NCBI GenBank assembly: GCA_943788985.1
Contig: CALSSJ010000044.1
Span: 11,845 to 75,844 of the forward strand
DNA: 64,000 nucleotides
Source of the DNA: an uncultured Lentisphaerales bacterium
Lineage (GTDB): Bacteria > Verrucomicrobiota > Lentisphaeria > JABSQK01 > UBA12247
Reading direction: 5' to 3'
The notes under the pieces are model-generated. The model was not told the DNA's origin and made no database searches. It worked only from the letters and a program-made list of their open reading frames with translations. Positions 5,396 to 57,734 of this stretch are shown here, piece after piece. The position numbers and the translations under genes are program-made. Within the stretch, counting starts at the first letter, position 1; every line of letters begins with the position of its first letter.

Positions 5396-5832
5396 TGTTT
5401 GCCCGGGTCGCTCGCGTCGCGACGGTACTTGCAGTGCTCGCGGCATACTTGCTCGCCTACCTTCCTGTAGTTTCGCCCACGTTCATCGCAGATTGCTTCC
5501 TCGCGCAAGCCCCCTCGAACGGCCGCTTTCTCTGCCAAGACCATAATTGCGGCTGTAAATCCGCGGTAGATTGCGCAACAAACTGCTGCTGCTTCCCCAA
5601 AGACTCTCGGCGGCGCACAGAATCCGCTCCCGCGCTTGCTGCTGGCAAATGTCACAGCGACGCCCCGGCCGGATCAGTCACAGCCGCCAATCCTATCAAA
5701 CACGTTCCCAGCGCTGACAGCCCCTCATGGTTTGCGGAGTCCGCAACCCGGGGCCCCGTGCTGGCCTTCACCGCGGCATATTCCCCGCCAGATCCTGAGC
5801 ACACCAGCCCGGTCCCCATTCACGAGTCCTGA
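5395..5832 (+). CDS. Small membrane-anchored Cys-rich protein (hypothetical)
   Basis: The ATG at 5395 overlaps the nth stop (TAATG). N-terminal hydrophobic anchor VATVLAVLAAYLLAYL, then 8 Cys in 22 aa (CQDHNCGCKSAVDCATNCCCFP). I recognise no family. Confidence 0.45.
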   Translation: MFARVARVATVLAVLAAYLLAYLPVVSPTFIADCFLAQAPSNGRFLCQDHNCGCKSAVDCATNCCCFPKDSRRRTESAPALAAGKCHSDAPAGSVTAANPIKHVPSADSPSWFAESATRGPVLAFTAAYSPPDPEHTSPVPIHES

Positions 5833-5980
5833 GAACTCTTGTAGGCAGGAGATTGAGGAAAATGGCAGCCTCCCATAGCGCCAGCGTCTTCTCCGCCCGC
5901 CTGCATATCCTCGTGCATCAGCACGCCACCTCCCTGGTCCCCGGCTTTCCGGGACCGCATCCTCTCTCAGGTAATTTCAT

Positions 5981-6976
5981 ATGAGTTATTCACCGTTTTT
6001 GCGTGCCGTCGGCACGCTCCTTCTATCCACGATCTGCCTCGCTGGCAGTCGCCCGGACGCTCACGCCCCAATTGGCGTCATGGGCGACCATCTTCACGCA
6101 CGCAATCAGATCATGGTGTCCTACCGCATGATGCACATGGACATGCCCGGGCAACGGCAGGGCAGCCAAGAACTCAGTGCGCACGAGGTCCACGCTCTCG
6201 GCCATGACGCGGCCGCCACGAACATGAGCATGAACATGCACATGATGGGTGCCATGTACGCCCCGACCAAATCAGTCACACTCATGCTCATGGGCATGTG
6301 GCTTGAAAAGGACATGACCTTGCAGTCCAGCCCGCATGGCATGCACGGCCATGGCACCCACGGGCACTCCAGTTCCGGCTGGGGCGACACTTCCCTGACT
6401 GCCTTGATCGGTCTCCATCAGGATGACACCCACCGCGTTCACCTTGGCCTGGGAGTCAGCCTCCCAACCGGGGCTGCGGACGTCCGCCAGGCAGGGACAT
6501 TTCTGCCTTACGGTATGCAACTGGGCTCCGGAACCTGGGACTTTCTGCCAAGTGTCACCTACACCGGGATCGCGGATACCTGGTCTTGGGGTGCCCAGAT
6601 AAGCGGGAAGATTCGCGAGCATGCGCGCAATGACAGCGGCTTCACCCTGGGAAATGCTGTCAGCACCACCTGCTGGGCTGCACGCCCTCTTTCTGAGAGC
6701 ATCAGCGCATCCGCCCGGTTGGTTCACCACAGCGAGGGCGCGATCGCAGGCCATTTCAACGACACCCATGGCCACGCGGCACCGCCGCATTTCCCGCGCA
6801 ACTACGGCGGACAGCGGCTGGAATGCGCGGCCGGTCTCAACCTGTCACCGCCTACAGGGCCCTTGGCTGGGCATCGCATTGCGCTGGAAGTCCACGTTCC
6901 GGTCTACCAAGACATGAACGGTATCGGCATGGATACCGGCATCACCTTCATGGCTGGTTGGCAGAAGAAAATCTAA
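5981..6976 (+). CDS. Met/His-rich outer-membrane beta-barrel-like protein (uncharacterised 'transporter' / MetA-pathway-like family)
   Basis: Signal peptide, then HAPIGVMGDHLH...MVSYRMMHMDMPG, typical of this family. Met/His tracts MSMNMHMMGAMY, MLMGMW and HGMHGHGTHGH. Alternating beta-strand-like C-terminal half ending in an aromatic-rich tail. Confidence 0.6.
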   Translation: MSYSPFLRAVGTLLLSTICLAGSRPDAHAPIGVMGDHLHARNQIMVSYRMMHMDMPGQRQGSQELSAHEVHALGHDAAATNMSMNMHMMGAMYAPTKSVTLMLMGMWLEKDMTLQSSPHGMHGHGTHGHSSSGWGDTSLTALIGLHQDDTHRVHLGLGVSLPTGAADVRQAGTFLPYGMQLGSGTWDFLPSVTYTGIADTWSWGAQISGKIREHARNDSGFTLGNAVSTTCWAARPLSESISASARLVHHSEGAIAGHFNDTHGHAAPPHFPRNYGGQRLECAAGLNLSPPTGPLAGHRIALEVHVPVYQDMNGIGMDTGITFMAGWQKKI

Positions 6977-12268: not shown

Positions 12269-13252
12269 CTAGCGCGTGCGTAGCCAGCGGTCGATCGCCT
12301 TCCAGTTATGGTTCCCGAATCGCTTGTGCACTTTACGGAAACCGCCGCCGTATATCGGATCCGGGCTCTTGTCGATGGTGATGTAATCCTGCATCCAGCC
12401 CTGCTTGCGGCAATACATGGCAGCGGTATACTGGCAAAGCCCTTCCTCCAAGTCTCGCGGCAGGTCCGCGATAGGACGGTAGGTCTCCGAAATCAGATCG
12501 TGAGTTAACTCGTGAATGGCCGTGATAAGAAACTGATCGGGAGTTAGCCCTGACAGGATGAAGATGGTCTCGCTGACTTCTGTGTCCGCAGAGACCACGC
12601 GCCCGGCAAAGGAACGCGTCTCGGTGCGCTCGTTGCGCCGGTAGAAGCCGCGGGCCGTCATCTGATCGGGCATGTGGCCCTGCTCCCCCATCACCCGCAG
12701 CAAACTCGGGCGGTCCACCAGTTTGAGCTTTGGCAAGGAGGCTGAGACGATCCCGGTCACGGCCTTAAGCTGTGCACGTGCCTGACGAAGCCGAGCCAGG
12801 CCGTTCGCGGGGTCGAAAATTGCGGACTTTGCGCAGGTGGCACATTGCTTGCGCCCGTCTTTTAGCAGCTTCCCCGCGTCGAATGGCAGTCCACAGCCGA
12901 AGCAGCGATGCCCGTCTGCGTGCGCCTTGCAGTACTTCTTGCCATTGATGGTGAACATCTGGCGTAACGGCTGGGCGCAGAGCGTGCATTTCGGCAGCGA
13001 AATATTCAGACACTTCTTGCCGCAATAGGACTTGCCCTCGGATATCACAAAGCTTCCAGACACATGCTCCTTGCAGCTGGCGCAGGTGGGCAAGGTCCGG
13101 CGATGACACGATTTCGAACAGAAGGATTTACCTTCGGCCGTGAGGTAACTGCCGGAAAGCGCGTTCTTGCAGACGCTGCAACGCGCGGCTTCTGCGGAAA
13201 TCGCGAAGGATACCAGCAGGAGTATGACAGAGAAATATCTCGAATTGGGCAC
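12269..13252 (-). CDS. Secreted LIM-type zinc-finger + DA1-like (HExxH) peptidase protein
   Basis: Signal peptide, then about 5 CxxC...C/H zinc modules (CSVCKNAL..FCSKSCH; CASCKEHV..YCGKKC; CTLCAQPL..YCKAHADGHRCFGCGLPF; CATC). The C-terminal part IFILSGLTPDQFLITAIHELTHDL...EEGLCQY...DPIYGGGFRKV aligns with the plant DA1 peptidase core (ILILYGLP...HEMMHAWL...EEGICQV...YGxGFR). Confidence 0.7.
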   Translation of the reverse strand: MPNSRYFSVILLLVSFAISAEAARCSVCKNALSGSYLTAEGKSFCSKSCHRRTLPTCASCKEHVSGSFVISEGKSYCGKKCLNISLPKCTLCAQPLRQMFTINGKKYCKAHADGHRCFGCGLPFDAGKLLKDGRKQCATCAKSAIFDPANGLARLRQARAQLKAVTGIVSASLPKLKLVDRPSLLRVMGEQGHMPDQMTARGFYRRNERTETRSFAGRVVSADTEVSETIFILSGLTPDQFLITAIHELTHDLISETYRPIADLPRDLEEGLCQYTAAMYCRKQGWMQDYITIDKSPDPIYGGGFRKVHKRFGNHNWKAIDRWLRTR

Positions 13253-13350
13253 GTAAAATCCTCAAGAAGTCCCTGTAGTAGCTGATATTTCCGTTTGGTG
13301 ACCTAGCTTACCCCCGAACGTCGGATGCACCACAGCGGGGAAGGGCTGAT

Positions 13351-14502
13351 ATGTCAATGACCAAGTTTCAGCAAGATGCCGAGGGCATGACGCTAGCGGT
13401 GGCTTGTGGTGGAACCGGCGGGCATTTCTTTCCGGGCCTAGCGATCGCGCGAGAGTTTAAGCGCAAGGGGGGGACAGCGATCCTTTTTGTCGGCGGTAGC
13501 CAACAGGACGCTCAGATCAAGCAGGCCGAGGAAGAGGCCCTGGAGGCCGTTCCTTCTCCGGTTGTGCGTCTACCGCGGTCCAAGCTGGGATTGCCCTTAT
13601 TTGCTGTACGTCTGGCTTGGTGCGTGTTGCAGACCGCCCGCCTGCTGGGCAAGCATGGCGTGGACTTGGGCATCGTCATGGGCAGCTATGCGTCTGCACC
13701 ATTGGGACTGGCACTTCTGCTACGTGGCAAGCCACTGGCGGTACACGAGGGCAACGCCATTCTTGGCCGGGCGAATCGTCGGCTGGCGAAGTACGCAGCC
13801 CACACCATGCTCTCGCTTCCTATTCCAGAGTTGCTATGCGAGGACGATACGACCTTGGTAGGCATGCCCGTACGGACGGAGATCCTGGGGGCAGCAGATC
13901 ACGAACTTGAAGACGAGGAGTCGCTGAGTCGCTACGAGGCGCTCGGGCTATCTCCAGACTTCCCGGTGGTTCTGGTATTTGGCGGCAGCCAGGGCGCGGA
14001 GGCGATTAACCAGGCCGTGCTGGGAGCAATCCCCAGGCTGGACTTCCCACCCCTGCAACTGGTGCACTTCACAGGAAAGGAGGATAATCGCGAGGAGCAG
14101 GAACTGTGTGAGAAACATGAGATCATGGCCCAAATCGCAGCGCGAACGGACCAGATGGGTGCGTATCTGGCAGTGGCAGATTTGGTCGTATCTCGGGCTG
14201 GCGGATCGACAGTTGCCGAGCTCGCGGTTACTGGACGGCCATCCATCCTAATTCCCTATCCGCACGCGACGGATGCACACCAGGCCCTGAACGCGGAGGT
14301 TGTCGCGCGTGCCAAAGGCGGGCATGTGATTGCCGAAGCGGACCTGACCTCCGACGCCCTGCGCGAGGCGATCACCGCCGCGCTCACCGACCCTGAGTTG
14401 CGGAGATCGCAACGCGAGGGTATTCTGACCTTGGCACATCCCCGTGCGGCCGAGGACATCGTAAGCTTGCTGATTTACGAGCAACGCAAGACCTCGAACT
14501 AG
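13351..14502 (+). CDS. murG: Undecaprenyldiphospho-muramoylpentapeptide beta-N-acetylglucosaminyltransferase
   Basis: Shows GGTGGHFFPGLAIA, VLVFGGSQGAEAIN and SRAGGSTVAELAVTGRPSILIPYP, all characteristic MurG motifs. Confidence 0.9.
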   Translation: MSMTKFQQDAEGMTLAVACGGTGGHFFPGLAIAREFKRKGGTAILFVGGSQQDAQIKQAEEEALEAVPSPVVRLPRSKLGLPLFAVRLAWCVLQTARLLGKHGVDLGIVMGSYASAPLGLALLLRGKPLAVHEGNAILGRANRRLAKYAAHTMLSLPIPELLCEDDTTLVGMPVRTEILGAADHELEDEESLSRYEALGLSPDFPVVLVFGGSQGAEAINQAVLGAIPRLDFPPLQLVHFTGKEDNREEQELCEKHEIMAQIAARTDQMGAYLAVADLVVSRAGGSTVAELAVTGRPSILIPYPHATDAHQALNAEVVARAKGGHVIAEADLTSDALREAITAALTDPELRRSQREGILTLAHPRAAEDIVSLLIYEQRKTSN

Positions 14503-46176: not shown

Positions 46177-47953
46177 TTGTCTTCCGGCACCGTCACTCAG
46201 TTGGTTGAGTCCTTTCGCAATGACGAGGGGCAGCCGAGGCAGTGCATCATTCTGTCGCTGGGCAGGCCAAAATCAACGAGGACATTCGCCGCGAGGTCGC
46301 CAAAGTCGTCGCAGCCCGCCTGTATCACGAACCAGAACTGCTTGAACGGCCACTGAGGCCAGAGGCCGCCTGTTAGGTTGATCGTATCGTCAACACTGTC
46401 CAGCATTATGGAACATCGCCCCCCAGGCGCAAACGCCGCGCCCATCAAGACAACACCAGCTCGGAGGCGATTGATGGCGTGTTGTCCGACAAAATCGACC
46501 ATACCCACAGCACTACCTTGGGCCCCGAGCTTCTAGCCTTGCACGCCTGGAAGCAGCTGAATATGCCCGGTCTGCTGGAGACGCTCGGCTTCAACCAAGC
46601 ACAATGTGACGCCGCCGCCGTCAGGGTCGTTAACAGACTCGTGGCCCTCTGCAGCGATTATTTCATGCAAACCTGGCTGACCACCAGTTCCCTCGCCGAC
46701 CTGCTCCGCAGCGACATCTTGAACTTTGCCGATGACCGCGACTATCGCATCGGCGATAAGCTCCTGGCGGCCAAAGACAAGATCGAAGACCACCTTCCAC
46801 ACGCCCAAAAAGAACCCTTCAACCTCCAGCGCACTATCATCCTCTACTACCTGACAAATACGCACTTCGCGGGTGTCTGCGCCAAGAATCCAAAAGCCAA
46901 GCGCGGCAAGAACAAGCAGAAGCGCAACGACTGCCCACAGGTCGTTGTCGGCATGGTCTTCGACGAATTTGGCTTCGAACTGGCACACCAGACCTTCAGC
47001 CGTAACACCCGGGACTCGACCACACTCACGTTCTTGGTAAACACCCTCAAAAAGCTCACCGATAGCGATCAGGAGTTGGCCGACGCCAAGCCCATTGTCG
47101 TCGTCGATGCTGGCATCGCGACCATAGACAACCTGCGGCGACTGCGTGAAGAAGGTTTTAGTTGCCTCGTCAATGCCAGTCACTAACAGCGAGAGGTCTA
47201 GGCCGATCATTTTCGCGACGATAGCGGCTTTGAGGCAGTGCCCGGTCGCGAGAAAAACGGCCGAGCGCGAGCCCCTGTTTTGGTTAAAGCTGTCGATCAT
47301 ACTTTCACTGAATAACCCACCGGATAAGCCACCGAGGCCAGCGACAGCGAAAACACACCAGAGATCATTGCTGCGCGCTTGGTCTTGTGTAAAAGCGACA
47401 CTCCCGGTGACAAAGAACGTGCTATGATCAGCAAGGCCGAGGAGAAACTCCTTGAGCGCCTGCAGAAGCTCGCCACCCGCATCGCCATCGGTCGGTTGCG
47501 CAGCAACAACTCGCGAGTGGTCAGATTCTACGACATCGACTTTCAGGAAGCCAATAAACCTGCGAAAGGCGAGCCTGAGGGCGTCTTGCGCTACACCCGC
47601 AAAGACCAACTTTTTGCTGACAGTCAGTTGGTTATGGGCTGCTACGTACTACGAACCGATCAGCAGGATCTGCCTGCCGAGCAACTTTGGCAGCTATACA
47701 TCACCTTAGTCCTGGCCGAAGAGGGGTTTCGGCTACTAAAAACCGACTTAGGCCTGCGCCCGAACTTCCATCAGATCCAAGATTGCGTGGACGGGCACAT
47801 TTTCATCACCGTGCCTGCCTACCACGTACTGACGCACATCCTGTACACCTTACGCCAAGGCTTTCTGAGGCATCACAGGCGCAGATCTATCGCCACTTCG
47901 ACATCGACACGACCGCCTTGCCACAGAGCAAGGTGATCATCACACCAAAATGA
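46177..47953 (+). mobile_element. Decayed IS1634-family (IS4-like DDE) transposase gene: 5'-truncated, one frameshift, at least 5 in-frame stops and a 3' internal deletion
   Basis: Reads QLVESFRNDEGQPRQCIILSLGRP, then a shift near 46265, then an in-frame TAG at about 46374-46376, then YYLTNTHFAG..AKRGKNKQKRNDCPQVVVGMVFDEFGFELAHQTF..VVVDAGIATIDNL..GFSCLVNASH*. ORF 47379.. is in the same frame as ORF 46479.. (offset 900 nt), with four stops between them. The C-terminal GCYVLRTD..LWQLYITLVLAEEGFRLLKTDLGLRPNFHQ..GHIFITVPAYHV is followed by a frame jump to SQAQIYRHFDID. No terminal inverted repeats were found. Confidence 0.7.
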
Positions 47954-48020
47954 CACGAGAAGAACCTGCGACTTTGCAGGGATTCTTTCTTATCTCCCTC
48001 ATTACCAGAGGCTTGCGATC

Positions 48021-48329
48021 CTGAGTGCAAAATTCGGGCTAGCGCGCAACGCCGTCGGCGTGATTATGGTCGCCAAGGCTGGCAAGACCACCTGCCATTC
48101 CATACGCTACTGCCACGGCCAGTTCGTCAATACAAACATCCGCGGCTACGTCCTAAACGGCATCGATTCCGGCGTACGAAGGTACGGCTGTTACTACCGC
48201 GGCCAGTACGGCTACAAGCCTTATGCCCAGCAACGCACCTACTACCGAGCGGCCCCAGAACTGAAGGAGCTGTCCGAGCGTCAAGCACTACCTGAATGCG
48301 CTCCTTCAGCGCCGCCCGTCCCGGCATAG
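48021..48329 (+). pseudogene. Orphan 3' fragment of a polysaccharide-export tyrosine autokinase (Wzc/EpsB-like)
   Basis: GVIMVAKAGKTT...IRGYVLNGID..YGCYYRGQYGYKPY matches the end of the BY-kinase P-loop domain plus its Tyr-rich tail. There are no Walker motifs or upstream domains, and it begins right after the IS relic. Confidence 0.5.
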
Positions 48330-48495
48330 CCACATTGGCCTCGCAATCCGCGATGGCAACAGACTCAGAAGTCGGACTCGCTCTACGACTGACACGGCGG
48401 GAAATTGACTGAGATTGTGTGCGGCAGCGACTGGCACGCGCTCGCCACCACCGTTATCTTCCGGCCAGTCGTAGTGCACGTAGCTGGAGCCTCCC

Positions 48496-49908
<1,413 letters not shown>

Positions 49909-49984
49909 GTCCAGATTTGCCGTCAGCGCTGGCGCTCCCATCCCTAGCGGCATCCCTCCATCGCCTCCAGCCCGAATATGGTTC

Positions 49985-50275
49985 CTAAGAGTTTTCGAAC
50001 AGCTGTGGAACAACCCGGCCTAGGAGCCGGTAGTGGTCGACGACCAGCACGGCCCGGCCGTCGTCCTCTAGCGCCAGCCTCCCGGTCACCTCAACGGCAA
50101 AGCAGAGGTGACGGGGCATTGACGCACCGCTGACTCCCAACTCGAGCAGGTACTCGCCTTCGCCGTCGGTTTCTAACGCCAACGTCCGCACCTGATCCCC
50201 GTCCCAGTCGATCGGGACCAGAATGCCACGCAGGACATGCGTCGGCGCATCGGTGGAGGTCGATTTCGTCATCAT
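49985..50275 (-). CDS. Small hypothetical protein (96 aa) expressed from a sigma-54 promoter
   Basis: ORF with a GGGAGA RBS 2 nt upstream of ATGATG. A consensus -24/-12 promoter lies about 140 nt upstream on the same strand. Beta-rich sequence with no recognised family. Confidence 0.55.
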   Translation of the reverse strand: MMTKSTSTDAPTHVLRGILVPIDWDGDQVRTLALETDGEGEYLLELGVSGASMPRHLCFAVEVTGRLALEDDGRAVLVVDHYRLLGRVVPQLFENS

Positions 50276-50414
50276 GGTCTCCCTAGAGGTCGCCCTCCCA
50301 GTCGTAAAACATCAGGGCGGCGGACCAGTTTAGAAACTTGAGACTCCTTTGTCGGGTTCCGTCGGTCATTGGCGAAAGACAGACCTGTTAAGATCCTACC
50401 TACTCGCCACCCCT

Positions 50415-50430
50415 TGCAACTGCCGTGCCA
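50415..50430 (-). promoter_or_regulatory. Sigma-54 (-24/-12) promoter, leftward
   Basis: The minus strand reads TGGCACGGCAGTTGCA, an exact match to TGGCACG-N4-TTGCW with correct GG/GC spacing. Confidence 0.75.
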
Positions 50431-50527
50431 ATCGAACCAGACGTCGTCTGCAGCCCCACAAAAGACGCCAAAACGCTCCTCACACCGGGTTTTACTGAAC
50501 CACGAGATCCGATTCGATTACCAGGCA

Positions 50528-50542
50528 GGAACTTCCAGTTCC
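50528..50542. promoter_or_regulatory. Candidate enhancer (UAS) palindrome between the divergent sigma-54 promoters
   Basis: GGAACT-TCC-AGTTCC is a perfect 6-3-6 palindrome. A degenerate copy, GGAACTGCAGCTTC, lies at 50571-50584, about 42 bp (four helical turns) away. Both sit roughly 100-150 bp upstream of each promoter. Confidence 0.35.
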
Positions 50543-50662
50543 GAAACACTAATTGCGCTGCCCAGAAAGCGGAACTGCAGCTTCTACATCGCGGACTCTT
50601 GGTCGCTCCCCGAGATGCCTACATGCACCATCTTTCAAGGCTGCGCCATGTGTCCCCAGTGT

Positions 50663-50678
50663 TGGCACGCAACATGCA
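50663..50678 (+). promoter_or_regulatory. Sigma-54 (-24/-12) promoter, rightward
   Basis: TGGCACGCAACATGCA has correct GG-N10-GC spacing and one mismatch in the -12 TTGC. It is followed by AGGAG (50706-50710) and GTG at 50719. Confidence 0.7.
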
Positions 50679-50718
50679 AACAAGATGTTGTCCGACCTTT
50701 TTTCTAGGAGCGATTTCC

Positions 50719-51516
50719 GTGCAACACCCAAACTTCTCGCTGGCTATCGGCAACGGCCCGATCGTCGCCGCCGCCCTTCACGCAGGCCATCAACTCCGGT
50801 CCGAAGTGGAGGCGGAAATCACTCTTTGCCCCGCGGATAGGCTTCGTGAAGAAGATCCGTATACCGATCGGTGGACTCAGTTTTCCCCGACCCGGCTAGT
50901 TGTCCACACCTCTCGTTTTCAGGTCGACCTGAACCGTCCTCGCGGCAGCGCAGTCTACCGCACCCCCGCAGACGCCTGGGGCCTGCAGGTCTGGCGCGAC
51001 CGTTGCCCGGACGGCATCCTGCAGCGTTCACGTGCAGAGTACGACTCCTTCTACGGCATGGCCGAGCGCGTTTTCGACGACCTAGCCCGCCGCTACGGCC
51101 GGTTCGTCGTCTACGACCTCCACACGTACAACCACCGCCGTAACGGCCCGAACGCACCACCGTCTCCCCAGAATGAAAATCCCGATGTGAATCTGGGCAC
51201 AGGCAGTCTCGACCGCAGCTACTGGGCTCCGCTAGTGCATGCCTTCACGGGCGCATTGCCCAGCCCCGACTCCGGCCAGACTCTGGATGTACGTGAGAAT
51301 GTGAAGTTCCAAGGCGGCCACTTTGCTCGCTGGGTTCACGCCAAGTACCCGCACATTGGGTGCGTCCTCTCCATTGAGGTAAAGAAGACTTTCATGGACG
51401 AGTGGACCGGAGTAGCCGACCCCGCACAGGTCACCTTGATTCGCGACAGTCTTGCTGCCACTGTCGATCCAGTCTTGCGGGTCCTCCATTCCGTCTACAA
51501 CGCCCAATCCGCGTGA
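50719..51516 (+). CDS. N-formylglutamate amidohydrolase (FGase) family protein
   Basis: PIVAAALHAGHQLR, DPYTD, HTSRFQVDLNR, VVYDLHTYN and LSIEVKK correspond to the FGase-fold metal and active-site segments. The start was chosen from RBS and promoter geometry; the longer ORF from 50425 spans the promoter region. Confidence 0.7.
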   Translation: MQHPNFSLAIGNGPIVAAALHAGHQLRSEVEAEITLCPADRLREEDPYTDRWTQFSPTRLVVHTSRFQVDLNRPRGSAVYRTPADAWGLQVWRDRCPDGILQRSRAEYDSFYGMAERVFDDLARRYGRFVVYDLHTYNHRRNGPNAPPSPQNENPDVNLGTGSLDRSYWAPLVHAFTGALPSPDSGQTLDVRENVKFQGGHFARWVHAKYPHIGCVLSIEVKKTFMDEWTGVADPAQVTLIRDSLAATVDPVLRVLHSVYNAQSA

Positions 51517-51520
51517 CCTG

Positions 51521-53426
51521 ATGGCGCTCGACTCCACCATAGTCCAACGCATCCGGGAACGCCTTGCCACCAACCAGCCGCTGCGTTGTCAGGTTCCCGG
51601 AGGCGGCGTGCTGAACGTAGACCGGCAACTGCCGTTCCTCTGCGTGTTCCGACGTCCTCGCAACGAAATCGACGCGAGCATGGCCAAGCTCGTGCGCGGC
51701 GAGGGCGCATATCTGGTGGGCCGCGGTGATCGTAGCGGGCGTCGCAACACGCGCGAGCTCGTCCAGTTGACCGTTGCCGAGCTCGCCCCACACTTCGGTG
51801 CCTTCCTGATTGTGGAGCTGTGGGCAGCCGCCGAAGCATCAGCGGACATGGCCCCGCATTTTACCCTCGCCGCGCCGGCAAGAACGCCACAGGCGATGCT
51901 CGAAACCTTGCAAGCCGAGCTAGGACGGATGCGCGTCCAGCGACGCCGGGCGCGAGTCACGGTCGAGCGCCTGCCGCCGGTAGCCCCTGGCTTCTCGCCG
52001 CTACTTACGCCGGCCCAAGCCCAGGCGCACAACGTTTTCGTCATCGGGATCGAAGTCGCACCGATCTTTCGCGATCCCACCACGGGAACAGTCTTCCCTC
52101 TGGTGTTGCGACGTCTCCACCGAGGCTTGAGCCTGGCGCTGCGACGTTGCTTCTACGAGTTTGCGGTCTCCGCAACTACCCACCGCCCCGACCACTTCCA
52201 CACCCTTGGCCGTCGCGCTATGGTCAAAGCAGTTTGGGATGCGGACGCGGCGCTCGCCCGCATCGACCAGACCGTGGACTTCCTCCTCCTCGTCACCCCC
52301 CACCAATGCGGAAGCCGCATGGCGACGCTTCCGCCGCGACCATTTCGCCAAGGCCCCTGCCTTTCGCTACCGCTCTTTGCCATTCGACCCGGCCAAACTC
52401 AAGCGGTCATTGTTTGCCATCCCCATCGAGCGCGTAGAGGACCCCATGCTGGCCCGCCTCTTCGGCGACGAACGTCAGGACCTTGAACGACGCCTCAGCA
52501 TGCTCGTAGATCGCAACACGCCCAGCTTCCTCTACGGTAGCCTCCAAGTCTACGGTCCTGTCGACGACGCCCTCCTCGACCTGGCCCGTGACATCCTCCA
52601 GCGCCTGCCCCCGCACCGCTCCGGCTCGGATATAAGGGGCACGGTGGGGGCTGCGAAGTTCGCAGAAGCAGCCCGCGCTGAGATCGCCCGCTGCACCGCG
52701 CGTTGTCCGCAGTTTCGCGCCCGAGTCGAAATACGCGCCGACCTAACCGGCCTGATGGTCTCGCGCGACTGCCTCTACGTAGGTGCCTCGCTGCAAGTCT
52801 CAGCCCGGCGCGTCGAGGCACTCATCCAGCACGAGATCGGCGTCCATATCGCCACCTACTGTAACGGCGCTGACCAGCCGTTCGCCCAGCTACGCCACGG
52901 CCTTACCGGCTATGAAGAACTCCAGGAAGGCCTCGCAGTCTTTGCAGAATACCTGGTTGGCGGCTTCACCGGCCCCCGGCTCCGTCTGCTTGCCGCCCGC
53001 GTCGTGGCCGCCCGTATGGTCACCGAAGGAAGCGACTTTCTCTCGATCTTCCATGCCCTCCGCGACGAGGGCCAGTTCGATTCCCGTACCGCCTATCTGG
53101 TGACCATGCGCGTGACCCGCGGTGGTGGTTTCACCAAAGACGCCGTCTATCTGCGCGGCCTGGTCTCGCTGCTGAAGCACCTAGCGGACGGTGGCGAAAT
53201 TGAACCGCTGTACGTCGGAAAAATCGCCGAACAGCACATGGCATTTGTCCGTGAGTTACAATGGCGTCGCGTCCTCCGATCGCCCCTTTTCATCCCCTCC
53301 TATCTCACCGACGAGGCCGGCCGCGAACGTCTTGCTGCCGCTCGCACCGGACTGCATGTCTGCGACCTCGTAGGTATCCGCCCGAACCTAACCAGAACCA
53401 CCATCCGCAAGGCCCCCCCCTCATGA
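51521..53426 (+). CDS. DUF1704 / QEGLA-motif protein (putative metallo-carboxypeptidase-like), frame interrupted in a C6 run at 52296-52301
   Basis: ORF 51452.. (ATG 51521) joins ORF 52161.. at DFLLLVTP/TNAEAAWRRF. The C-terminal part has HEIGVHIATY (HExxH) and GYEELQEGLAVFAEY, the family-defining QEGLA motif. Confidence 0.8.
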
Positions 53427-54466
53427 GAATCGCCTTCTTCGTCAACGACATCGCTACCGAGCTCCCCAACTACACGACCACCCGCTTGGCTATGACCGCC
53501 ACCAACCGCGGCCACGACGTCTGGTATGTCGGCGCTGGTGACTTCGCCTACGACCCGGACGAGAGAGTCCGAGCCCGCGCCCGCGGCGCCACCAAGGGCT
53601 CCTACAAGTCGCTGGCCAGCTATCTCAAAGACGTGCAGGGCACCAAGGCCCGATCTGAGCGAATCACCGTGGACGACATCGACGTCCTCATGCTCCGCAA
53701 CGACCCGGCGACCGACCTGAGCCGCCCTTGGGCGCAGTCCGCAGGCATCACCTTCGGTCGCGTTGCCATGCGCCAAGGCGTCATCGTTCTCAACGACCCT
53801 GCGTCACTGGCCACAGCCATGAACAAGATGTACTTCCAGCTCTTTCCGGAAGAAGTCCGCCCGCGCACGCTCATCACCCGTAACCGAAGCGAGATCAAGG
53901 CCTTCGCCAAAGAATTAGGCGGCACCGTCGTCCTCAAGCCCCTGCAAGGCTCCGGCGGCTCGAACGTCTTCCTCGTGCGGAAGGACGAAATGGCCAACCT
54001 TAATCAAATGATTGAAGCCGTCTCACGAGACGGCTACATCATCGCCCAGGAGTATCTCGAAGCAGCCGTAGACGGCGACACCCGCTTGTTCTTAATGAAC
54101 GGCCGGCCGCTCCGCTACAAGGGTCGCTACGCGGCCTTTCGGCGAGGTCGCGGCGAGGACGATATGCGCAGTAACATCCACGCTGGCGGCCACAAGCTCC
54201 AGGCCACCATCACCGACGCCCACCTGCAGTTGGCCGAGATCGTACGCCCACGCCTGGTCCGGGACGGAATGTTCTTGGTCGGCCTAGACATCGTCGGTGA
54301 CAAGCTGATGGAGATCAACGTCTTCAGCCCCGGCGGTCTGGGCAGCGCCCAGCAGTACGAGAAAGTGAACTTCTCTCACGCCATCATCGACGCTCTCGAA
54401 GCCAAGGTCGAGTACATGCGTTACTACCGCCGCAAGTTCGGGAACATTGAGATGGCCACGCTGTAA
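53423..54466 (+). CDS. ATP-grasp ligase related to glutathione synthetase (GshB/RimK-like)
   Basis: ATGA overlap with the upstream stop. MRIAFFVNDIATE.. (GshB N-domain), VVLKPLQGSGGSNVF, and GDTRLFLMNGRP...NIHAGG...LVGLDIVGDKLMEINVFSPGG (ATP-grasp Mg/ATP motifs). Confidence 0.8.
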   Translation: MRIAFFVNDIATELPNYTTTRLAMTATNRGHDVWYVGAGDFAYDPDERVRARARGATKGSYKSLASYLKDVQGTKARSERITVDDIDVLMLRNDPATDLSRPWAQSAGITFGRVAMRQGVIVLNDPASLATAMNKMYFQLFPEEVRPRTLITRNRSEIKAFAKELGGTVVLKPLQGSGGSNVFLVRKDEMANLNQMIEAVSRDGYIIAQEYLEAAVDGDTRLFLMNGRPLRYKGRYAAFRRGRGEDDMRSNIHAGGHKLQATITDAHLQLAEIVRPRLVRDGMFLVGLDIVGDKLMEINVFSPGGLGSAQQYEKVNFSHAIIDALEAKVEYMRYYRRKFGNIEMATL

Positions 54467-54999
54467 ATTGCGCTCCGTGATCCATCGGCAAGAATTCGGT
54501 CTTTCGATTATTGTAGCTTGCCAGGAGGAGCGTGGAGATCGACACCACAGGCAACGCTCTAGTCGCCCCCTTAAACGAGTGCTGGCTTCTGGAAAACGCA
54601 GATCGCAGCGTATGTGAGGAATTGCGCCGTCACAGCCAGCTGGGCCACGCAAACCTCCTCGGGGACGTCTTGAACGGCATCTGCGCTGCCCCAGACCTGA
54701 ACTAGTTCCATTTGCATCCCATATGCCCAAAGGATCCGGCAGCTCAGCCTGAAGGGCCTTTAGTTAGCCAGGGATGCACGAAGAATCCCCGATGGCTAAT
54801 TTCGCCAGCTTCAAGGCTGCAGGCGACAGTGCTCATCAAATCAATCACCACCGTAAGTCACGATCCAAGTAGCCTATGGGATGCCAGTGAAGTAGTTCCA
54901 TTTGCGTCGTGCCCTACGTCGGGGAAAATAGTCCGGGCCGAGCTGCTTTTCTTGAATCTTTCCCTGCAACGCTTCGTCCAGCTCCCATCCCCAAGCTGA

Positions 55000-55800
55000 G
55001 GTCATCAGCAAAGTCGACTCTGGGTATCGAACGCATCGTTAAAAGCATCCAGCTCTGCTATGCTCATGCCGAGTTAGCCCCCGCCTTCCCGCCAGCCTGC
55101 CACTGCCGCGATCACTTCGGAGAGAACAGCTTCGCTTCGGGATGGGTTGATCTGGAAATGGGGGGCTTCAGAGTGAAACGCCTCAACGGAAGCCTACGGG
55201 CCAACCTCCTCTGAGATCCAGTTTTTGAGCTCAGGGTAGCGATCAGGAAACGGGTTCACGTCAAAGGCAGGAGACAGTCGCCATTGCCCGTGCACGACGT
55301 GGAGAAATGCGTGATTGTGTAGGTGATCATCCATCATTATTTACGGGGATCGAAAAGGCAAGGCGTCGAAAGAACTCCTCAATATCGCGCTGCGTATCGC
55401 TGCCATAGCAACGCAGTGCATCGACAAGCTCGGTGTACGTGTTTTACGCGGGGTCGCCTCTGTCGACACCCAGCAAGTTTGCCGCAGAGCCATACGGGAT
55501 CCGGCCACCATTGCCCAGGGTCAAGCCGGCCAATCAGAGCAACTGGCAAGCCGGCGCTCAACACGAGGCACGCTTCTGCTGCGTGGATGCCTGCCCCCAT
55601 CGCCAACTGCAGGGCAAGCACTGCTCATTTTGTCATAGCCCGATGGTCGCTAACGCTGGGGAATTTCGCAATCGCCAACTGTCCGTCATCGTCGCGGACC
55701 GTACGCTTTGGGCGCAGGCCGCCGAGTGCTTTAACCGTCGAGAGTAGAAGAGCCTGGATTTGGTGGGCGCGTACTTGCTGACCTGTGCCGAGAGGAAAGG
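55000..55800 (-). pseudogene. Relic of a HipA-family toxin kinase (C-terminal domains) with nonsense codons and a frameshift
   Basis: The minus strand reads ALGGLRPKRTVRDDDGQLAIAKFPSVSDHRAMTK*AVLALQLAMGAGIHAAEA...ALIGRLDP... (TGA where Trp is expected), then ...GDPA*NTYTELVDALRCYGSDTQRDIEEFFRRLAFSIPVNN, a shift, then DDHLHNHAFLHVVHGQWRLSPAFDVNP...AVLSEVIAAVAGWRE. No HipB or N-terminal coupling domain is detectable. Confidence 0.6.
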
Positions 55801-56030
55801 CGCCGCGGGCATATCCCCAAGTTGGCCATCAGCTTCAGCGTTCAGTGCGTCACTGCCACGGCGCCATGATTCGCCACGAGGCTATGTAGGAGGCCGAGAT
55901 CTCAGCTAAACGCAGTCACGAAGGCCTGGAAGATTGGGGCGTCCTCGGTTCGGCGGCGAAGTGTTTCCGAACTGAGAATCCCTGCTAAGGTTTGGCACGC
56001 GCGAGACCATGGCCATCAGGAACAATTAGA

Positions 56031-57734
56031 ATGCAAGGTAAGCAAGACGCCGTGGGGCGTGAGGAAAATCAGAAACTGAACACAGTGGCCGGGGTGCTGC
56101 TGGGCGTGTTTCTGCTGGCTGCCTGGTGGACGTTGCCCGACTATGGCATCACCTATGACTGCCACGAGTACTTCCTGGGCGATAAGAACCTGGTCTACTT
56201 AGTCACGCGAGAGGGCACGCATCTGGATTATGCAGCAGACAGCGTGCCGATTCATCAGCGAGCGAGCCACTTAGACCTCCATGCGAACTCCGTATTCGCG
56301 GCTGAGAATCCGCAGGAAATATGGCCCTTCGGCGCGGTCGTGACCAGCATCAGCAAGCATGGGCTGTTCGGCCTGGGCCTGGTGGATGATGTGTTTGACG
56401 CCCACCACGCAATCCTGCCGTTGCTGGTCGCACTTCTAGGCTGGTTCGTGTTTCGCTTTGTGGCCCGTGAGATTGGGCCGTGGGCCGGGCTGATCGCGAT
56501 TGTCTGTCTGCTGTCCTACCCGCGTTTCTGGGCGCATTTACACAACAATTATAAAGATATCCCCAGCGCGGTGTGGTTCTCGTTGGTGGTGTTGAGCTTC
56601 TATCATGGGATCGAACATCGGCGGGTGAAGCAGATCATCCTGGCCGCAGTGCTTTGGGGCGCGGCCTTGGCCACCAAGGGCAATGCTCTGTTTCTGCCCT
56701 TTGTGGTAGGCGTCTGGTTCTGGTACGTGATCTACCGACGAGTGCGGAGTTCGCAAACCGGCGAGCTAATCGTGGAGCGGAGAGCGATTATGGCACTGTG
56801 CGCCTTCCCGTTCATCGGCCTGGCCGTCGCGGCTTTGCTTTGGCCCTATTTGATGCAGAACTTCCCGGACCATCTACTACTGCACTGGGATTACATCCGC
56901 GAGCGTGGCGCAACTGGGCCTGATCATTGGCAGCTGGCAGCGGTGGGCAAGGTGCTCTCGATGACGCCGCCGGTCATGCTGGTGCTGATGGGCTGCGGCC
57001 TGGCCTGCATCGCCTTCCGTAGCGGCCGGGGCCGGGCCGTGAGCAATCTGGACGCATTACTGCTGCTGTGGCTGACTGTGCCGGTGCTGCGGGTGTCGGT
57101 CCCGCGGGCGCACGATTTCGACGGCATCCGCCATTGGATTGAGTTCGTCGTCCCCGCAGCGATCATCGCAAGTATCGGGGCAACCTGGCTGGGCAAAGCG
57201 GTTGCCAGGCGAATTCCACAGCCGCGCCGCTCGCTAGCGGCCGGTGTGGCCATTTTGCTCATTCACCTGCCTGCCCTCTATTGGAATGCTCGCCTGCACC
57301 CGTACCAGATTTGCTACTATAACTTTCTGGTCGGCGGCCTCGGTGGGGCCCAGGAACGGATGATCGATCAGTCCACTGACTACTGGGGCTCGTCTTACCG
57401 GCAAGGCTGCGCTTGGCTGAATGAGAATGCCGAGGCGGACGCGGGCCTAGTGGTCGGCATGGGCGAGCACATTGTCCGCTATACCGCAGAGGCCTGGCTG
57501 CGCCCCGATATCGTCCTCATTTCGACGGACGGCATGTTGAAGGATGAGGCACTTGCGGAGTCCGCAAAACACGACGGGCCGGTCTATCTGATGTACATTA
57601 CGCGCTGGCGACACTACAATATGCTGACGCGTTCAGTCGAGGCACGACGCAAACCACCATTACACCAGATTGTGGTCGATGGTGGAGTCATCCTAAAAAT
57701 CTATCGTTTGGATGCGGAGCTTACCAAACGGTGA
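56031..57734 (+). CDS. Polytopic membrane glycosyltransferase, GT39/PMT_2 (ArnT-like) family
   Basis: About 11 predicted TM helices with the loop YPRFWAHLHNNYKDIPSA and ALATKGNALFLPF, plus a soluble C-terminal 150 aa or so. The ATG at 56031 is preferred over TTG 55992. Confidence 0.6.
   Translation: MQGKQDAVGREENQKLNTVAGVLLGVFLLAAWWTLPDYGITYDCHEYFLGDKNLVYLVTREGTHLDYAADSVPIHQRASHLDLHANSVFAAENPQEIWPFGAVVTSISKHGLFGLGLVDDVFDAHHAILPLLVALLGWFVFRFVAREIGPWAGLIAIVCLLSYPRFWAHLHNNYKDIPSAVWFSLVVLSFYHGIEHRRVKQIILAAVLWGAALATKGNALFLPFVVGVWFWYVIYRRVRSSQTGELIVERRAIMALCAFPFIGLAVAALLWPYLMQNFPDHLLLHWDYIRERGATGPDHWQLAAVGKVLSMTPPVMLVLMGCGLACIAFRSGRGRAVSNLDALLLLWLTVPVLRVSVPRAHDFDGIRHWIEFVVPAAIIASIGATWLGKAVARRIPQPRRSLAAGVAILLIHLPALYWNARLHPYQICYYNFLVGGLGGAQERMIDQSTDYWGSSYRQGCAWLNENAEADAGLVVGMGEHIVRYTAEAWLRPDIVLISTDGMLKDEALAESAKHDGPVYLMYITRWRHYNMLTRSVEARRKPPLHQIVVDGGVILKIYRLDAELTKR

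Follow-up and report, generated by a model that had tools for sequence, protein, structure and literature searches.

Among the closest described relatives of the system treated here are eukaryotic enzymes. The human enzymes MATCAP/TMCP1 (KIAA0895L) and TMCP2 are tubulin tyrosine carboxypeptidases and deglutamylases, opposed by the ATP-grasp ligases TTL and TTLL; MATCAP was identified as a tubulin detyrosinase and deglutamylase in 2022–2023, with an evolutionary survey of eukaryotes only (PMC10499314). We describe a bacterial relative of MATCAP encoded by a three-gene cassette at 50719–54466 of a 64-kb stretch of contig CALSSJ010000044.1, from an uncultured Lentisphaerales bacterium (the whole stretch is hereafter “the window”). 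Bacterial MATCAP relatives are abundant, and they stand almost always beside a gene for a GshB-like ligase and usually beside one for an FGase-fold amidohydrolase as well; they also recur next to Mg2+ transporters and mechanosensitive channels. Our preferred reading, to which we give a probability of roughly 45%, is that the cassette makes and dismantles a small N-blocked glutamate-based peptide tied to cation and osmotic balance.

N-acetyl-aspartyl-glutamate metabolism, with the synthetase RIMKLA, glutamate carboxypeptidase II and aspartoacylase, offers a chemical parallel. It joins the three enzyme types that we propose for the cassette: an ATP-grasp ligase, which lengthens an N-acylated acidic amino acid, a metallocarboxypeptidase, which takes the added residue off, and an amidohydrolase, which deacylates the N-acyl amino acid. 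The hydrolases of the cassette belong to other protein families, and the animal genes are unclustered. With the eukaryotic MATCAP and TTL/TTLL enzymes the cassette shares the pairing of a carboxypeptidase with an ATP-grasp ligase (PMC10499314); unlike theirs, its ligase is GshB-like and encoded in the same operon, and an FGase-fold amidohydrolase is present as a third enzyme. The MATCAP-like protein itself resembles human MATCAP in its Pfam family (PF08014), its HExxxH plus EGLA-glutamate metal site and its fold (template modelling [TM] score 0.71 to 7z6s), and differs in being bacterial, where there is no tubulin, and in having an extra N-terminal domain, probably a degenerate FGase-like one. 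The cassette comprises the following features.

50719..51516, forward strand: FGase-like gene, GTG start and TGA stop, 265 aa, with AGGAG 8 nt 5′ of the start
51517–51520: 4-nt gap between the FGase-like and DUF1704 genes
51521..53426, forward strand: MATCAP-like (DUF1704/QEGLA) gene, ATG start and TGA stop, 634 aa after removal of one C, two domains
51521..52195, forward strand: N-terminal domain of the MATCAP-like protein, about 225 aa, probably degenerate FGase-like
52296–52301, forward strand: C6 homopolymer with a +1 frameshift, specific to this assembly
52830–52847, forward strand: HEIGVH (HExxxH), catalytic motif of the predicted carboxypeptidase domain
52923–52937, forward strand: QEGLA, catalytic motif of the same domain
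53423–53426: ATGA overlap of the DUF1704 and ATP-grasp genes
53423..54466, forward strand: GshB-like ATP-grasp ligase gene, 347 aa, subfamily NF009110/PRK12458
54443..54463, forward strand: NIEMATL, the ligase C-terminal tail, at the end of an extension of about 17 aa beyond E. coli GshB

The three tightly packed genes form a real operon, and their starts and stops are identical in gene calls on a contig from an independent metagenome assembly (L001). A preliminary description of the window, made from the sequence alone, had proposed just this operon and had assigned its products to the FGase, DUF1704 and ATP-grasp families; Pfam and NCBIfam agree with these assignments. It had named a lack of conserved synteny of the three families as a ground for refutation, and the synteny proves strongly conserved. 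Scanning one genome for each species gave at least 580 relatives, the best 80 loci of which we studied; by record titles they span at least 13 phyla, two Bathyarchaeota metagenome-assembled genomes (MAGs) included. The ligase gene adjoins a MATCAP-like gene in 75 of the 80 loci (in four of the remaining five a contig end cuts the locus), and all three genes are present in 62, in the order FGase, MATCAP-like, ligase in 54, with a median span of 3.7 kb. Across loci the ligase is the most conserved product (47–74% identity, compared to 37–48% for the MATCAP-like and 34–57% for the FGase-like protein). Annotated records, such as those of Sinorhizobium meliloti pSymB and Shinella plasmids, name the products N-formylglutamate amidohydrolase, QEGLA motif protein and glutathione synthase. 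Small open reading frames (ORFs) of 25–110 aa beside the cassette gave no conserved family in 83 loci, the clusters found being shadow ORFs or sibling loci, so no carrier or precursor appears to be co-encoded with the cassette. The whole cassette is present on two contigs binned as Bathyarchaeota (L049 and L076), and between L076 and the window the ligases share 72% identity; these cassettes reflect either recent horizontal transfer or mis-binning.

Pfam matches the ligase to GSH-S_ATP (166 bits), GSH-S_N and RimK (51 bits), and NCBIfam places it in NF009110/PRK12458 (479.9 against a cutoff of 408, with residues 1–347 on model positions 1–349). It falls below the cutoffs of both GshB equivalog models (TIGR01380, 191.9 vs 299.05; NF003573, 208.9 vs 272), and below that of the RimK family TIGR00768 (78.1 vs 143.4). 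The GshB scores favour the preliminary description, which had counted it as a refutation if the ligase proved to be the organism's only bona fide gshB. Its best match in the PDB is E. coli GshB (1gsa, E-value 1e-38, aligned over 310 residues), the match to a RimK structure being weaker (E 2e-7). Like E. coli GshB it is a two-domain ATP-grasp protein (GSH-S_N plus GSH-S_ATP) with the catalytic arginines and glycine-rich loop, R86, R210, the R225 region and the loop all aligning with 1gsa; unlike GshB it has an insertion near residues 45–80, the 17-aa C-terminal extension, a separate NCBIfam subfamily, linkage to a carboxypeptidase gene and sometimes two to three tandem copies. RimK, the ribosomal protein S6 glutamate ligase, belongs to the same broad ATP-grasp clade and is induced at low salt together with a homologous gene pair in Photobacterium (see below), but the cassette ligase lies far below its family cutoff (78 vs 143), has other partner peptidases and shows no link to S6. 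No gshA was found in the annotated stretch of the window (40–64 kb of its 64 kb, the range covered for gshA, hut and neighbouring genes throughout), nor in the recurrent neighbourhoods of related loci.

All 79 of 79 ligase homologues compared across phyla (L004–L083) end at the identical position with the motif [DN]-N-x-[ED]-M-[AC]-T-L. Because this conservation reaches the terminal carboxylate, it suggests a function for the tail, such as docking, autoinhibition or self-modification. Tandem ligase paralogues, in two to three copies, occur at several loci of Planctomycetota and Gemmatimonadota (L016 11890–15125; L020 11893–17000; L018 10742–12852; L029 15320–17566; L011 3118–5272), with distinct tails (...ELATL, ...DMCTL and ...EMATL); L020 also has a second MATCAP-like gene. 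Such paralogues would fit stepwise assembly of a longer peptide.

Residues 269–602 of the frameshift-repaired MATCAP-like protein match Pfam MATCAP (PF08014, formerly DUF1704) at 298.2 bits against a cutoff of 27, and residues 242–605 narrowly miss the cutoff of NCBIfam TIGR02421, the QEGLA motif protein (328.2 vs 338.65), a model that leaves the N-terminal domain outside. H437, E438, H442 and Q468–E469–G470 are invariant across 25 homologues. The two motifs align with RHEIGTH and EEGLA of human MATCAP, in which mutation of the motif residue E281 abolishes activity (PMC10499314); the HExxH motif of the preliminary description must be amended, HEIGVH being a HExxxH of the MATCAP type. In an AlphaFold2 (AF2) model (predicted local distance difference test [pLDDT] 88), the C-terminal domain matches the human MATCAP structures 7z6s_C and 7z5g_C (E 1e-9; target-normalised TM 0.71 and 0.69). 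Human MATCAP/TMCP1 is an experimentally demonstrated carboxypeptidase of a family that removes C-terminal Tyr and Glu and includes deglutamylases, and activity on a C-terminal residue beside acidic residues is known from eukaryotic members only (PMC10499314). Homology and fold thus back the earlier suggestion that the DUF1704 protein is a metallocarboxypeptidase, as which we predict it.

Several weak lines of evidence agree that the N-terminal domain of this protein is probably a degenerate, non-catalytic FGase-like domain that has lost the metal-binding histidines. In an hhalign comparison its family aligns with the FGase-like family over 184 collinear columns (E 8.8e-4), with matching motifs in which DLHSY has become IExW; the DLH histidine is lost and the domain family has no invariant His. 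The whole-protein model also matches FGase 2q7s, PghP 3a9l and M14-like folds (E about 7e-3). A sequence-level search of the domain against solved structures found nothing, and the matches came from fold and profile–profile comparison alone. In the long bacterial MATCAP-like proteins this seemingly degenerate domain occurs alongside a separately encoded, apparently active FGase-like enzyme, of which it may be a pseudoenzyme partner.

That enzyme, the product of the first gene, scores 74 bits against Pfam FGase (PF05013; cutoff 28.9) and only 28.4 against the HutG equivalog TIGR02017 (cutoff 278.75); by these scores it is not HutG. A single-sequence or family-profile search of the PDB found no entry, whereas the AF2 model (pLDDT 91) has FGase 2q7s as its best match (E 9e-13, TM 0.72); next come M14 carboxypeptidases and the poly-gamma-glutamate hydrolases 3a9l and 5onj. 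H21, H24, E45, D46, D70, N72, R73, H135, E193 and E220 are invariant in the family, and the metal-site residues are among them. We predict an FGase-fold zinc amidohydrolase, which shares the fold of HutG and of phage PghP (TM 0.72 to 2q7s, weaker to 3a9l) and the conserved metal-site residues, and differs from HutG in falling short as an equivalog (28 vs 279 bits) and in having no hut genes nearby, none being found in the window stretch or among recurrent neighbours. A role in histidine utilisation is not supported by either the score or the surroundings.

Besides regulators, the most recurrent neighbours of the cassette are ion channels and transporters, which we checked with Pfam: MscS-type channels, MgtE, CorA, CNNM/CorC, cation-chloride cotransporters and CitMHS-TrkA_C permeases. 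In 17 of 80 loci the cassette contains a gene for MgtE, CorA, CNNM/CorC, MscS or a cation-chloride cotransporter, or has one no more than 300 bp away; 27 of 80 (21 of 48 among loci of at least 15 kb) have an ion-transport gene within 10 kb. Stretches at which MgtE, CorA, CNNM/CorC, MscS/MscK-type or cation-chloride cotransporter genes stand beside or inside the cassette include the following.

L019, 5767–7161
L029, 11889–15380
L016, 15122–21872

A response to salinity has been recorded as well. In Photobacterium damselae at low salt (1% NaCl), the GshB-annotated gene A0J47_RS17020 is up 38-fold and the adjoining QEGLA gene A0J47_RS17025 27-fold, both among the most induced genes, with RimK up 52-fold alongside (PMC10308900).

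The peptide is proposed because the three family-level chemistries fit one scheme, and the role in cation and osmotic balance because the ion-transport neighbours and the salinity response point there. Enzymes of the GshB type lengthen an N-acylated amino acid by one residue at its alpha-carboxylate, those of the MATCAP type take off a C-terminal residue that adjoins acidic ones, and FGase-type enzymes split N-acyl-glutamate. We infer from this a substrate class and an order of reactions. In an ATP-driven reaction the GshB-like ligase would couple one amino acid to an acidic amino acid that is N-blocked (gamma-glutamyl or N-acyl), at the alpha-carboxylate of the latter, by the chemistry with which GshB acts on gamma-Glu-Cys; the MATCAP-type gluzincin carboxypeptidase would take off the added C-terminal residue; and the FGase-fold amidohydrolase would cleave the N-acyl-amino-acid bond that remains. 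The physiological role would probably be tied to homeostasis of cations (Mg2+, K+) and osmolarity. In support of this scheme, the ligase keeps the GshB catalytic residues and yet sits in its separate subfamily. Two loci that lack the FGase-like gene carry other genes beside the ligase: in L082, a gene at 5429–6358 on the reverse strand, 35 nt after the ligase, encodes an amidohydrolase of the AstE/AspA family, whose members are N-acyl-Glu/Asp amidohydrolases, and in L055 a glutaminyl cyclase gene at 12836–13801 overlaps the stop codon of the ligase. Both genes may replace the missing one in function, and would then point to an N-terminal or N-acyl glutamyl substrate.

Several points weigh against the peptide scheme. 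The two candidate replacements (AstE/AspA in L082, from Litoribacter, and the cyclase in L055) are each a single locus. A ligase co-expressed with hydrolases that undo its product looks futile unless the activities are separated in time or by regulation. All the GshB-like residues checked in the ligase are retained, which by sequence would be compatible with glutathione synthetase activity. Ion-transport neighbours are absent from the window stretch and from about two thirds of the loci. Finally, the conserved ligase tail and the probably non-catalytic FGase-like domain hint at protein–protein or protein–substrate interactions, and a purely small-molecule model needs neither.

These last two features favour an alternative built on proteins. 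The main rival to the peptide scheme, which we regard as unlikely, is a writer and eraser of a protein C-terminal tag, a counterpart in prokaryotes to the cycle of tubulin tyrosination and glutamylation: the ligase would add one or more residues and the MATCAP-like carboxypeptidase remove them, on a protein encoded elsewhere (as RimK acts on ribosomal protein S6) or on the ligase's own tail. Characterised MATCAP members do act on protein C-terminal tails (PMC10499314); the ATP-grasp ligases include TTL as well as GshB and RimK; the cassette ligase shows unusually high conservation between phyla (up to 74% identity) and its extension, ...EMATL, is conserved to the last residue; the extra, apparently non-catalytic domain of the carboxypeptidase could bind protein; and in Photobacterium low salt induces RimK along with the gene pair. 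Yet the surroundings of the cassette in the 83 loci hold no conserved gene for a candidate substrate, and the ligase resembles the small-molecule ligase GshB (E 1e-38) more closely than it does RimK (E 2e-7). It is not obvious what an FGase-type amidohydrolase would do in removing such a tag, and the tandem ligase paralogues fit either model. An extension of this idea seems to us quite improbable: that the tubulin-tail system has its prokaryotic ancestor in the cassette, whose ligase and carboxypeptidase would reversibly modify protein C-termini and so tune ion fluxes under salinity change, with the invariant ...EMATL tail of the ligase itself, or cytoplasmic tails of the adjoining Mg2+ and mechanosensitive channels, as possible targets. 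Equally improbable, in our estimate, is a store of oligo- or polyglutamate that buffers free glutamate and hence cytoplasmic osmolarity and cation binding. One ligase with two hydrolases recalls cyanophycin clusters, in which cyanophycin synthetase occurs with cyanophycinase and a dipeptidase; poly-gamma-glutamate hydrolases (3a9l, 5onj) are among the fold neighbours of the FGase-like protein, genes for Mg2+ and mechanosensitive channels recur beside the cassette, low salt induces the pair along with RimK, and the MATCAP family includes deglutamylases (PMC10499314). A store of this kind has to contend with the fact that GshB-type enzymes add a single residue and the sequence gives no sign of processivity, and that the poly-gamma-glutamate hydrolase match is weak (E 3e-3 to 1e-2) against that to FGase (E 9e-13). 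To our knowledge, no polymer has been described from these organisms.

The reading implied by the public annotation we consider highly improbable; the ligase would then be simply the glutathione synthetase of the organism, and both hydrolases would work in the catabolism of glutathione or histidine. NCBIfam does name subfamily NF009110 “glutathione synthetase”, the ligase is roughly 35–40% similar to GshB of E. coli and aligns with it at the catalytic residues, and records name a glutathione synthase, an N-formylglutamate amidohydrolase and a QEGLA protein. The same protein is under both GshB cutoffs (209 vs 272 and 192 vs 299), however, its FGase-like partner is far under that of HutG (28 vs 279), gshA and hut genes are absent from the 40–64 kb stretch and from recurrent neighbourhoods, and some genomes have two to three tandem ligase copies. 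The cassette also occurs in Chloroflexota, Campylobacterota, Bacteroidota and Bathyarchaeota MAGs, lineages for which glutathione synthesis is not known. S. meliloti has gshA and gshB on its chromosome, and a gshB mutant of it is reported to be without glutathione despite the copy on pSymB.

If the preferred reading, a new glutamate-based peptide, is true, a class of metabolite would be added to bacterial cation and osmotic homeostasis; if instead the target is a protein tail, bacteria would have a counterpart of the tubulin code. Thousands of genes annotated “glutathione synthase” or “N-formylglutamate amidohydrolase” are probably misnamed, and the ligase has already been taken for GshB in at least one transcriptome study (PMC10308900). 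The preliminary description presented the cassette as a candidate undescribed system. This holds to the extent that the literature we searched (DUF1704, QEGLA, TIGR02421, PA3697, MATCAP with bacteria, S. meliloti) yielded no functional study of the bacterial cassette; it does not hold for the genes as such, which are widespread and routinely annotated, under misleading names. The families and their gene linkage are already in public databases, and DUF1704 is no longer a family of unknown function.

The C6 run at 52296–52301 splits the MATCAP-like gene in the window, and bears on whether the cassette is functional there. With one C deleted, the gene encodes a 634-aa protein, reading ...DFLLLVTPTNAEAAW..., in agreement with the family consensus, and the repaired junction ...LLLVTPTNAEAAW... 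coincides with invariant family positions. L001 is 99.8% identical to window positions 47128–56314 (9.2 kb), from which it differs by 16 substitutions and a single indel, one C fewer in this run; having C5 instead of C6, it encodes an intact MATCAP-like protein. The repaired window protein is identical to an intact one from another assembly (P0001) at 633 of 634 residues, intact 634-aa proteins make up six of the eight members of its 90%-identity cluster (22 contigs in total, from NCBI, JGI, Logan and ENA), and the best 120 homologues are all intact, at about 600–680 aa. Since L001 has C5, the homologues are intact and the repaired junction fits invariant positions, the frameshift is private to this assembly; on this comparison it is a homopolymer error or a private mutation and not a property of the system. 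This outcome favours the preliminary description, which had counted a real frameshift, with the gene not expressed, among the grounds for refutation. A programmed frameshift or a family-wide split gene is rejected on the same grounds (C5 in L001; 120 of 120 best homologues intact). It would follow from a real frameshift that the carboxypeptidase gene is a pseudogene and the cassette dead in this genome, and the cluster does contain a 326-aa fragment, recorded from a single 100,659-bp contig, that corresponds to the downstream piece from the ATG at 52446. We hold this to be very unlikely: the indel sits in a homopolymer and is the sole one across 9.2 kb against an independent assembly, both halves of the split frame are otherwise intact and conserved, and the six intact variants come from four sources. 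Nine of the 16 substitutions between the window and L001 fall within 135 bp (47156–47291), the remainder of the 9.2 kb being nearly identical; this cluster is at the edge of a pair of unannotated ORFs (46479–47186, forward strand, and 46533–47609, reverse strand).

Apart from its regulatory wiring, the window copy is an ordinary member of the cassette family, and its neighbours in the annotated stretch are housekeeping genes. PADLOC gave no match, and an anti-phage defence system is rejected on that account. We found no riboswitch or other known RNA in window positions 47000–56000 at E up to 1, and two tRNAs were the only known RNAs matched in 26 related loci. The features that set this copy apart lie upstream.

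48496..49908, forward strand: gene for a sigma-54 enhancer-binding protein (NtrC family), 470 aa, with a divergent receiver-like N-terminus
49985..50275, reverse strand: 96-aa ORF, transcribed divergently, a lineage-specific small protein
50415–50430, reverse strand: putative sigma-54 −24/−12 site TGGCACGGCAGTTGCA, no mismatches, facing the 96-aa ORF
50529–50543 and 50570–50584, between the divergent promoters: two imperfect palindrome copies GGAACTnnnAGTTCC, inverted repeat I3, 15 nt, 80% complementary
50663–50678, forward strand: putative sigma-54 −24/−12 site TGGCACGCAACATGCA, one mismatch, 40 nt before the FGase-like GTG

Scored against the consensus TGGCAC-N5-TTGCW, the whole window has five sigma-54 sites with at most one mismatch; as 2.6 are expected, this total is not significant. 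Two of the five share one 443-bp intergenic region, in which we would expect about 0.02 such sites by chance; they form an inverted pair (I1), run in opposite directions and each face a gene, beside the activator gene. The preliminary description mentions neither the mismatch-free site nor the palindromes. The activator gene lies two genes upstream of the cassette, just past the divergent 96-aa ORF, and is also called on L001. Its product matches Pfam Sigma54_activat (228 bits) and AAA_lid_14, falls below every NCBIfam equivalog cutoff (307.6 vs 558.6 for NtrC, TIGR01818), and is the likely activator of both promoters: it would drive the operon and, divergently, the lineage-specific 96-aa gene, with the GGAACTnnnAGTTCC palindromes as candidate binding sites. 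No sigma-70-type promoter was found anywhere in 49900–55000. With a promoter at the correct spacing and an activator gene at hand, we predict that the cassette is a sigma-54-dependent operon here.

Elsewhere a sigma-54 site (at most two mismatches) precedes the cassette in 8 of 71 loci, compared to a background of 0.02 per locus; most of the eight belong to Planctomycetota or Myxococcota, and four of them lie near an activator gene. Judged by these sites, sigma-54 control of the cassette is real but lineage-specific, and universal sigma-54 control is rejected. The preliminary description had spoken of nitrogen-type, sigma-54 control. The sigma-54 part stands, with the TGGCACGCAACATGCA site and the activator gene, but “nitrogen-type” is an over-reading because the activator is not NtrC by NCBIfam (308 vs 559); no nitrogen-assimilation genes lie near the cassette in the window stretch.

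The same description had offered the 96-aa protein as a possible substrate or partner of the cassette enzymes. Its divergent orientation and apparent co-regulation, through the divergent sigma-54 promoter, are upheld, and the gene is probably a co-regulated, lineage-specific one. As a conserved substrate or partner it is rejected, being absent from all 80 of 80 related loci and part of a small unrelated family, so that it stands outside the conserved cassette. The ORF has no Pfam, NCBIfam or PADLOC match, and a word-index search retrieved identical copies only, named Lentisphaeria bacterium, while an exhaustive HMMER search gave 41 weak relatives of 80–110 aa. The proteins of this family, for which there is no Pfam model, share the core G..P.DWD..G.V....T.DE.EY......G.EL...L...VEV.G.

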